A stretch of DNA of 64,000 nt from Escherichia coli (GTDB lineage Bacteria; Pseudomonadota; Gammaproteobacteria; Enterobacterales; Enterobacteriaceae), in NCBI RefSeq assembly GCF_050920415.1, contig NZ_CP169309.1. One strand, written 5' to 3'. Positions 29,090-30,655 of this stretch are shown piece after piece. The number at the start of each line of letters is the position of its first letter. Positions within the stretch are counted from its first letter, which is position 1. A program made the translations under genes and the position numbers. A model generated the notes under the pieces. It saw nothing but the letters and a program-made list of their open reading frames with translations. It searched no databases and had not been told where the DNA came from.

Positions 29090-29290
29090 TGATTGCCTGA
29101 TGCGACGCATGCGCGTCCTGTCATGCCTCCGGGCATTGCGCATATGCGCATCTGGCGATTTCCGTCGCTTACCCTAAATCCGCCATCAACACCTTTGATT
29201 TGATGTAGGTCGGATAAGGCGTTCACGCCGCATCCGACGATGAGCGTCAATACCTGATGCGATGCTAGCGTGTTTATCATGCCTCCAGGC
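29090..29290. repeat. REP/BIME-type palindromic units downstream of recD and argA
   Basis: GCCTGATGCGACGC..., AGGTCGGATAAGGCGTTCACGCCGCATCCGAC and CCTGATGCGATGCTAGCG palindromic units in the convergent intergenic gap. Confidence 0.7.
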
Positions 29291-29323
29291 ATTGCGCATG
29301 TCGCATCTGGCGATTTCCACCAC

Positions 29324-30655
29324 TTACCCCAAATCCGCCATCAACACTTTGGATTTACGCTGGTAGTTGTACAACTGCTTTTTGCTCTCGGGCAGTAAAT
29401 CAATATCCACCGGGGTAAATCCACGTTCCTGGAACCAGTGAATACTGCGCGTGGTCAGTACAAACAATTTGCTTAATCCGCTTTGCTTCGCCTGAGCGGC
29501 AATGCGCTCCAGCAAAACCTCGCCCCTTGATGAGCTGCGGTAATCCGGGTGAACGGCCACACAGGCCATTTCCCCAATCTTCTCTTCCGGGAACGGATAG
29601 AGTGCTGCGCAGGCAATAGTCGTGTTATCGCGCTGAATAATGGTGAATTTGTCGATTTCCATCTCCAGTTGCTCGCGAGAACGGCGTACCAGAATACCTT
29701 GCTGCTCCAGTGGGCGAATCAACTCCAGAATGCCGCCAATATCGTTGATTGTTGCGCGACGAATTTGCTCGGCGCTTTCCATCACAATCTGCGTACCGAT
29801 ACCGTCACGTGAGAACAACTCTTGCAACAGCGCGCCATCTTCCTGGTAACTAATTAAATGACAGCGACGTACGCCGCTGCGGCAGGCTTTCACCGCACCA
29901 CGCAAAAAGCGCACCGTACCGGAGTTGTAATCGCCTTTCTCTTCCTGAGCTTCTACCCGCGCTTGTGCTTCGTTAGGGAAAAGCTCGGAGACAATATCGC
30001 CGTCGTCATTAGTGACGCCCTGTGAAGAGCAAAAACCAATCATCTTTTCAGCTTTCAGTTTGATGGCCAGTTGAGTGGCGATCTCTTCCGAGGTCAGATT
30101 AAAGCTCTCGCCAGTGACTGAAACCGCGACCGGCCCCAGCAGCACTATCGCACCGCTGTCCAGTTGACGATGAATCGCATCTTCGTCAATCCGCCGGATA
30201 CGCCCGCTATGGCAGTAATCCACACCGTCATCCACGCCCAGCGGCTGGGCAATAATAAAATTGCCACTGACGACGTTGATATGCGCGCCCTGCAGCGGCG
30301 TGTTATTGAGACTCATCGACAGGCGAGCAGTAATGTCCAGTTGCAATGTTCCCGCAGCCTGCTTCACCAGTTCTAGTGTTTTGGCGTCGGTCACGCGTAT
30401 ATTTTTGTGATATAGCGGTTCGTGGTGATGCGCTGCCAGATTCGCATCGATCTGCGGGCGCGCTCCATAGACCACGACCAGACGGATGCCGAGGCTGTGC
30501 AGCAACCCGATATCATTAACGATACTGGAGAAATTCTCATGCTCAATGGCTTCACCGCCGAGCATGATGACAAACGTTTTTCCCCGGTGGGTATTGATAT
30601 AAGGAACCGAATGGCGGAATCCCTCGACCAACTCGGTTTTACGTTCCTTCACCAC
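29324..30655 (-). CDS. argA: N-acetylglutamate synthase
   Basis: 443 aa from GTG at 30655 ([12 protein letters not shown]); the track ORF extends in-frame upstream. Confidence 0.93.

Follow-up and report, generated by a model that had tools for sequence, protein, structure and literature searches.

The window analyzed was a stretch of 64,000 nt of Escherichia coli DNA (GCF_050920415.1, contig NZ_CP169309.1), and all coordinates given are window positions. In it, recD and argA converge on a spacer rich in REP sequences (Table 1). A repeat search detected a direct repeat within 29083–29356, with a period of 155–157 nt and three in-register blocks: 29083–29116 and 29240–29273 (34 nt, 74% identity), 29121–29143 and 29277–29299 (23 nt, 96%), and 29147–29201 and 29302–29356 (55 nt, 89%). 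An earlier note on this DNA had claimed a direct repeat of about 80 bp with about 90% identity, and this repeat is real. Global alignment of the two 80-nt boxes, 29121–29200 and 29277–29356, gave 71/81 identical positions with one 1-nt gap, and the local alignment score was 60, compared with 7.4 ± 1.25 (maximum, 16) for 2000 shuffles. The two boxes were also paired by blastn within the window with an E value of about 1e-18. The similarity goes beyond the REP units themselves, as the note had also implied, since a non-REP 9-nt spacer and a 33-nt gene tail match at about 86%.

The full homologous unit is 119 nt long, with 98/119 positions identical between 29083–29201 and 29240–29356 and the remaining 21/119 differing. 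Homology over this length places the beginning of the repeat at the recD stop codon, TAA (29084–29086), which overlaps the first bases of unit 1. The module period of approximately 157 nt corresponds to one 119-nt unit plus one intact Z2-like REP and a linker, and the order in the window is recD stop, Y, degenerate Z, 9 nt, argA tail′, GAT, Z2, linker, Y, degenerate Z, 9 nt, and argA stop. An assembly artefact was excluded, because the identical junction was present in 130 independent complete genomes. The box was found at only these two places in the 64-kb window. Its treatment as a dispersed repeat family was rejected for this reason, and because the single-copy version of the locus, a 336-nt query made of the recD end, the spacer and the argA end, had a median of one location in each E. 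coli genome.

Table 1. Features at the recD-argA junction of the window, with the basis of each assignment
Feature	Position	Strand	Basis
recD coding sequence	27260..29086	+	ORF; 95.3% over 1827 nt to K-12 recD; annotated recD in matching genomes
Repeat unit 1 (119 nt): recD stop/linker, REP-Y, degenerate Z REP, 9-nt spacer, pseudo argA tail	29083..29201		Alignment to 29240-29356
REP-Y no. 1, GCCTGATGCGACGC..GCGTCCTGTCATGCCTCC, 8 nt past the recD stop	29095..29130	+	Exact match to Y-type head
Degenerate inverted Z-type REP no. 1, GGGCATTGCGCATATGCGCATCTGGCGAT	29131..29159	-	Aligns with intact GTAGGTCGGATAAGGCG..CGCATCCGACGAT of L014 and E. whittamii
Orphan argA 3′ end, stop plus 10 codons	29169..29201	-	Same 10-residue peptide and stop as ArgA; 30/33 identical to 29324-29356
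3-nt filler GAT at the novel joint between argA tail and REP head	29202..29204		TCC or TTC in other haplotypes
Intact Z2-like REP, GTAGGTCGGATAAGGCGTTCACGCCGCATCCGAC, GTAG first, once between the units	29205..29238	+	Sole window match to GTAGGTCGGATAAGGCG (0.02 expected); inverted repeat
BIME linker GATGAGCGTCAAT, Z2 REP to next Y REP	29239..29251		Linker class shared with GATGAGTGCCAAT in the array of E. whittamii
Repeat unit 2 (117 nt), closed by the functional 3′ end of argA	29240..29356		Repeat search and alignment
REP-Y no. 2, more decayed, ACCTGATGCGATGC..GTGTTTATCATGCCTCC	29252..29286	+	2 mismatches to head GCCTGATGCGACGC; unit alignment
Degenerate inverted Z-type REP no. 2, 9 nt from the argA stop	29287..29314	-	Unit alignment; comparison with relatives
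argA coding sequence	29324..30655	-	1332 nt by homology to K-12; stop 29324-29326
argA site just past the homology end, CT-G-GTAG overlapping the 12-nt palindrome AGTTGTACAACT (minus strand AAC|TAC)	29360..29376	+	Read from sequence

The REPs were assigned to the Y and Z2 classes from the consensus sequences of these classes and from the match to the REP325 model. The box had been described as interleaved with REP palindromes. REPs do lie between the two copies, namely the intact REP and the Y head at 29252, with another Y head at 29095, but the box is not a separate element, being itself partly REP-derived. The 10 nt with which it opens, TCATGCCTCC, form the 3′ arm of REP-Y, and approximately 30 nt, GGCATTGCGCAT..CGCATCTGGCGAT, are a degenerate inverted Z-type REP of the form GGCATTGCGCAT(A)TGCGCATCTGGCGAT, as seen by comparison with the divergent Escherichia locus L014 and with E. 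whittamii. REP-Y no. 1 has homologues in E. albertii, E. whittamii and E. coli strains with the 81-nt type of spacer, namely their Y REPs. Degenerate Z REP no. 1 has an internal deletion of approximately 17 nt that took out the GTAG head region, and E. albertii has the same degenerate form. The intact Z2-like REP reads GTAGGTCGGATAAGGCG..GCATCCGAC, the very sequence of the second Z2 in the array of E. whittamii.

The locus contains both Y-type and Z2-type REPs in alternating orientation, the Y REPs running head first (GCC..) and the degenerate Z REPs and intact Z2 inverted to them, and the number of tandem units varies among strains (1, 2 or 3), all as expected of a BIME. Its linkers are not confined to the short canonical ones (S, s, l and r): Z2 and Y are separated by 13 nt, and Y and Z2 by 74 nt (29131–29204), an interval occupied by a degenerate REP, the 9-nt spacer and a 33-nt piece of the argA coding region. 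The Z2 REP and the following Y REP, with the 13-nt spacer between them, also have the structure of a REPIN, an inverted REP pair with a short spacer. The Z2-linker-Y stretch at 29208–29283 spans the full Rfam RF02564 model (naRNA4/REP325) with 54.6 bits on the plus strand, below the gathering score of 59.5 bits; other scores were 35.7 bits on the minus strand and 31.2 bits at 29073–29127. By the Rfam cut-off, the stretch is not a member of naRNA4, although it resembles a BIME unit. No other Rfam family was found at the locus.

The second copy had been said to hold the end of argA and the first to be a duplicate of that end, and both statements proved correct. The last 10 codons of argA (29327–29356) lie within unit 2, and the minus strand of 29324–29356 encodes the native ArgA C-terminus and stop; the corresponding part of unit 1 is the orphan tail. 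Its homology to argA continues past the repeat-element sequence with no intact frame or start, as expected of a gene-fragment relic. No ORF with a start codon covers 29169–29201, a stop codon precedes the tail, and the promoter/terminator scan revealed neither promoter-like sites nor, on either strand of 28900–29500, an intrinsic (Rho-independent) terminator with a GC-rich hairpin and T/U run. As read from its sequence, the orphan argA tail is a non-coding relic without a start codon or promoter.

In the window, the orphan and real tails have three differences, all synonymous (TCA/TCC, AAG/AAA and TTA/TTG), two of which would also fit a 1-nt insertion paired with a 1-nt deletion at a distance of 4 nt. 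The orphan tail of another E. coli haplotype, ecoli019, has just the deletion of that indel pair and is frameshifted, and the orphan tails in an E. albertii contig (L021, see below) have a 6-nt deletion. Both flanking genes are highly divergent for a within-species comparison: recD of the window is 93.9% identical to that of ecoli019 and 95.3% to that of K-12, and argA is 96.1% and 96.0% identical, respectively. A localized recombination patch around the duplication relative to K-12 was considered and not seen, the whole recC-amiC region being 2–6% divergent.

Several other features of the window were recorded. Approximately 5.5 kb between amiC and the tRNA-fMet genes (32140–37700) is absent from K-12 and encodes a PRD-domain protein, a PTS EIIC/EIIB permease, a class I/II aminotransferase, a SIS-domain protein and a D-2-hydroxyacid dehydrogenase; it looks like an accessory sugar-utilization cluster. 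Four tandem tRNA-Met(CAU) genes with a 110-nt period follow at 37703–38109, where the K-12 strains MG1655 and MC4100 have three (metZ, metW and metV), a further polymorphism in copy number. At 3334–3415 and 3531–3618 are the adjacent small RNAs OmrA and OmrB (Rfam RF00079, 86 and 97 bits), and a 38-nt direct repeat at 3381/3584 is the terminator end common to both.

The earlier note had predicted that the duplication would be polymorphic among E. coli strains, and a survey of alleles in 5,426 complete genomes confirmed this. Most of these genomes have single-unit recD-argA spacers of 61 or 81–82 nt. The 61-nt spacer, found in K-12 and most of the sampled strains, is one unit minus 20 nt of the Y 3′ arm, and the 81–82-nt spacers of other strains are one full unit. 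In the K-12 spacer (L001/L022), the Y head pairs with the degenerate Z REP tail as a long hairpin, a REP remnant; the MG1655 annotation has no REP feature in this spacer. The two-unit junction was detected in 130 of the 5,426 genomes (2.4%), about 98% thus being without a second unit. The two-unit genomes fell into two haplotype families. About 97 belonged to the window type or came close to it, with 100% identity to the window in many cases, and 33 were of the ecoli019 type, which has a 234-nt spacer and, over the junction query, 85.5% identity to the window. As an intermediate, a regular two-unit Y-Z2 array like that of E. whittamii, without the tail, was sought at the locus and found in none of the 5,426 genomes.

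A single-copy spacer of another kind, represented by strain CS18F and present in about 89 genomes, consists of the head of unit 1 and the tail of unit 2 joined within their shared 17-mer CGCATCTGGCGATTTCC. It had 0 mismatches to this combination over approximately 243 nt around the spacer, with the recD and argA flanks approximately 4% different from the window. Being an exact unit-1/unit-2 chimera, it was rejected as the ancestor of the duplication. Because the two units differ at so many positions and the chimera at none, CS18F is taken as the deletion product of an unequal exchange, a match that demonstrates loss of a unit through exchange between units. Units of one strain carry common variants, CATCTGG in the window and CATCCGG in ecoli019, from which we infer gene conversion, with independent duplications as an alternative. 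The two-unit spacer is a real strain-variable length polymorphism, that is, ordinary REP/BIME variation plus a captured coding sequence.

The same locus was compared in relatives of E. coli. In the E. albertii type strain, the recD-argA spacer has one Y and degenerate Z pair of the same form as in E. coli, and L014 has one Y and an intact Z2 lying 9 nt from the argA stop. E. whittamii (L016, 4915–5200) has a regular six-REP array, (Y-s-Z2-l)x3, also ending 9 nt from the argA stop; this array illustrates how differently the locus evolved among sister species. Because these outgroups all carry Y and Z REPs at this position, the recD-argA spacer is, on comparative grounds, an old BIME, in which a Y REP sits beside the stop of one convergent gene and an inverted Z-type REP beside that of the other, at a distance of 8–9 nt in both cases.

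A metagenome scan with the query tail′-N-GTAGGTCGGATAAGG gave one contig, L021, which was 99.1% identical to the E. albertii type strain over recB/recD. It contains three units, two with orphan argA tails that have the 6-nt deletion in common, followed by the functional end; this shared deletion indicates that whole modules amplify. The orphan tails in the window, ecoli019 and L021 are all followed by 3 nt and then by GTAGGTCGG (REP GTAGGTCGGATAAGGCG..CCGACGATGAG). The modules are 87–92% identical across the three, and L021 is 89.5% identical to the window over recB/recD, close to the module identity. The modules of the two E. coli haplotypes and E. albertii evidently have a common origin. Since the layout of the joint is common to all and the module identity approximates the recB/recD divergence, the comparison points to one founding capture, which would have occurred before the E. 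coli/E. albertii split or been spread by an old transfer afterwards, with amplification of whole modules later. In the earlier note, the repeat was seen as a footprint of REP-mediated duplication. A role of REPs is plausible, because the join sits 3 nt from the GTAG head of a REP; a recent local event was rejected, because the same module and junction occur in two E. coli haplotypes (approximately 9% apart) and in E. albertii.

The sequence around the joint was inspected for traces of the founding event. Homology to argA ends with ...GATTT at 29201, and the gene continues as ACGCTGGTAGTTGTACAACT, with CT, GTAG and a 12-nt palindrome. This stretch of argA (29360–29376) resembles the GTAG-plus-hairpin layout of a REP, which could be coincidence, and it is a candidate for the microhomology or pseudo-REP site used in the original join. 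The observed joint is GATTT-GAT-GTAGG. It is 3 nt shorter than a clean argA-GTAG join, GATTTACGCTGGTAGG. Because of these 3 missing nt and of a filler that differs among haplotypes, the founding breakpoint is blurred and the microhomology argument is weak.

We consider it probable that an old BIME underwent one illegitimate join between argA and Z2, followed by unequal recombination, and that the resulting two-copy module is probably near-neutral. The founding event would have been a single illegitimate or short-homology join of argA, approximately 11 codons before its stop (plus strand CTGGTAG), to the GTAG head of a Z2 REP in a BIME array that was longer at the time. The copy number may afterwards have been altered, and the units kept alike, by unequal homologous recombination and by gene conversion from unit to unit. 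Candidates for the first join are replication template switching or slippage, gyrase, and the REP-associated transposase TnpA-REP (RAYT).

Catalysis of the capture by TnpA-REP is a possible but rather unlikely alternative. The enzyme would have bound a nearby REP, cut single-stranded DNA in argA at C|T (minus strand AAC|TAC) and in Z2 at CC|TAC, and joined them by strand transfer or rolling-circle copying. TnpA-REP is known to cut at C|T, with one class of sites overlapping CTAC, to cut at distances above 400 nt on both sides of a BIME, and to perform strand transfer by which tandem BIMEs can be assembled (PMC3333891). The joint coincides exactly with the GTAG/CTAC boundary of the Z2 REP, and argA has CTAC and a palindrome within 6–9 nt of the homology end. 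In addition, rayt gene 3′ termini have been captured between REPs in four BIMEs (PMC2817692). However, the joint predicted by such cutting, CCGACC-TACCAGCGTAAATCC, is absent, 3 nt being missing and the filler varying by haplotype; a CT dinucleotide and GTAG are common enough by chance, and action of RAYTs on BIMEs in vivo is still a model. It is doubtful that the argA edge site (AAC|TAC beside AGTTGTACAACT) served TnpA-REP as a pseudo-REP cleavage site from which the 3′ end of the gene was copied. If such copying took place, BIMEs could enter gene ends without destruction of the gene, and this might act at many loci.

The orphan tail might instead derive from a different functional argA allele, which we regard as improbable. 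DNA from another lineage would have entered by homologous recombination on one side and an illegitimate event at a REP on the other, and a gene end, resident or foreign, would have stayed behind. The synonymous nature of all three differences in the window would fit this origin. The codons TCA AAG GTG occur in the functional argA of another enterobacterium (L019), the TTA/TTG and 9-nt spacer variants segregate among functional E. coli alleles, and recD and argA are unusually divergent between haplotypes (93.9–96.1%). On the other hand, both units share the deletion in the degenerate Z REP and so are paralogues of one locus type, and the module is common to E. albertii, which would make any such transfer an old one. 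The sites number only three, and two are open to the indel reading, with ecoli019 showing just the deletion. Synonymous-only differences were rejected as proof of a foreign allele, in view of the small number of sites, the indel reading, and the frameshift and 6-nt deletion elsewhere.

It is very improbable that the module was kept for a function, as a second REP stabilizer or attenuator of argA or recD mRNA or through a small RNA or peptide from the orphan tail. The predicted folding of the 261-nt region is much stronger than that of shuffled sequence on either strand (z = −2.7 and −5.0), and the module persists in two species at the identity given above. Such folding is not telling, however, because any REP cluster is expected to give it, and neither a promoter-like or terminator-like site nor an ORF with a start codon was found. 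Moreover, the tail is frameshifted or shortened in other haplotypes, and the second unit is readily lost and is absent from nearly all of the E. coli genomes surveyed. Mere REP-to-REP resemblance, chance or an assembly error, in whose favor is the REP-derived part of the box, has already been refuted by the match in the non-REP spacer and gene tail, the score far above the shuffle maximum, and the same structure in the 130 genomes.

On our favored reading of one old join followed by unequal recombination, the effect of the duplication, assuming neutrality, is probably nil, or limited to extra hairpins in the 3′ region and a modest change in 3′-end stability, because the REP nearest each stop, 8 nt past recD and 9 nt past argA, is unchanged. 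The module accounts for the 156–176-nt length difference of the recD-argA spacer among E. coli strains. For annotators, the orphan 10-residue stretch is not a gene, and the practical importance is small. The locus nevertheless has some use for the study of REP/BIME dynamics, since one, two and three units, together with a single-copy recombinant, make up a clean natural series in two species. Since the captured coding fragment marks the module unambiguously, the locus is convenient for studying the dependence of BIME gain and loss on RecA, gyrase and the REP transposase. Nothing specific was found in the literature on a recD-argA BIME. The locus is a new example of the known BIME length polymorphism, with captured coding sequence as the less common feature, and not a new kind of element.

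REPINs are inverted REP doublets thought to be mobilized by RAYTs. The Z2/Y doublet at 29205–29286, inverted and with a 13-nt spacer, is like them, but nothing indicates its arrival by transposition. The locus-specific Z2 found in E. whittamii and L014 is matched by the Z2 of the doublet, and its Y is a paralogue of the unit-1 Y. In 1990, Shyamala, Schneider and Ames reportedly found REPs to be the join-points of tandem chromosomal duplications in the his region of Salmonella; these duplications are said to have been kb-scale, laboratory-selected and formed by REP-REP joins. The argA case is likewise a tandem duplication with a novel joint at a REP. It is different in being natural, 157 nt in size, and formed between a REP head and a non-REP intragenic site.

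In composition, the locus resembles BIME-2 or atypical BIMEs: Y-type and Z2-like REPs alternate in orientation between convergent genes, the Z2-linker-Y stretch spans the whole REP325/naRNA4 model, and the copy number differs among strains and species, as BIME copy number is known to vary (PMC3333891). Unlike in these, the amplified unit is approximately 157 nt rather than Y-S-Z2-linker, and the 74 nt from Y to Z2 hold a degenerate third REP, the 9-nt spacer and the 33 nt of argA. Nunvar et al. (2010) described gene 3′ termini captured between REPs in rayt-adjacent BIMEs (PMC2817692), and the recD-argA locus is similar in having a copy of a gene 3′ end between the REPs of a tandem BIME beside the intact gene. 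Their cases are different in that they come from other species and the gene captured was that of the REP-associated transposase; at recD-argA, a housekeeping gene, argA, was captured at a site remote from tnpA-REP, and two Escherichia species are polymorphic for this capture.
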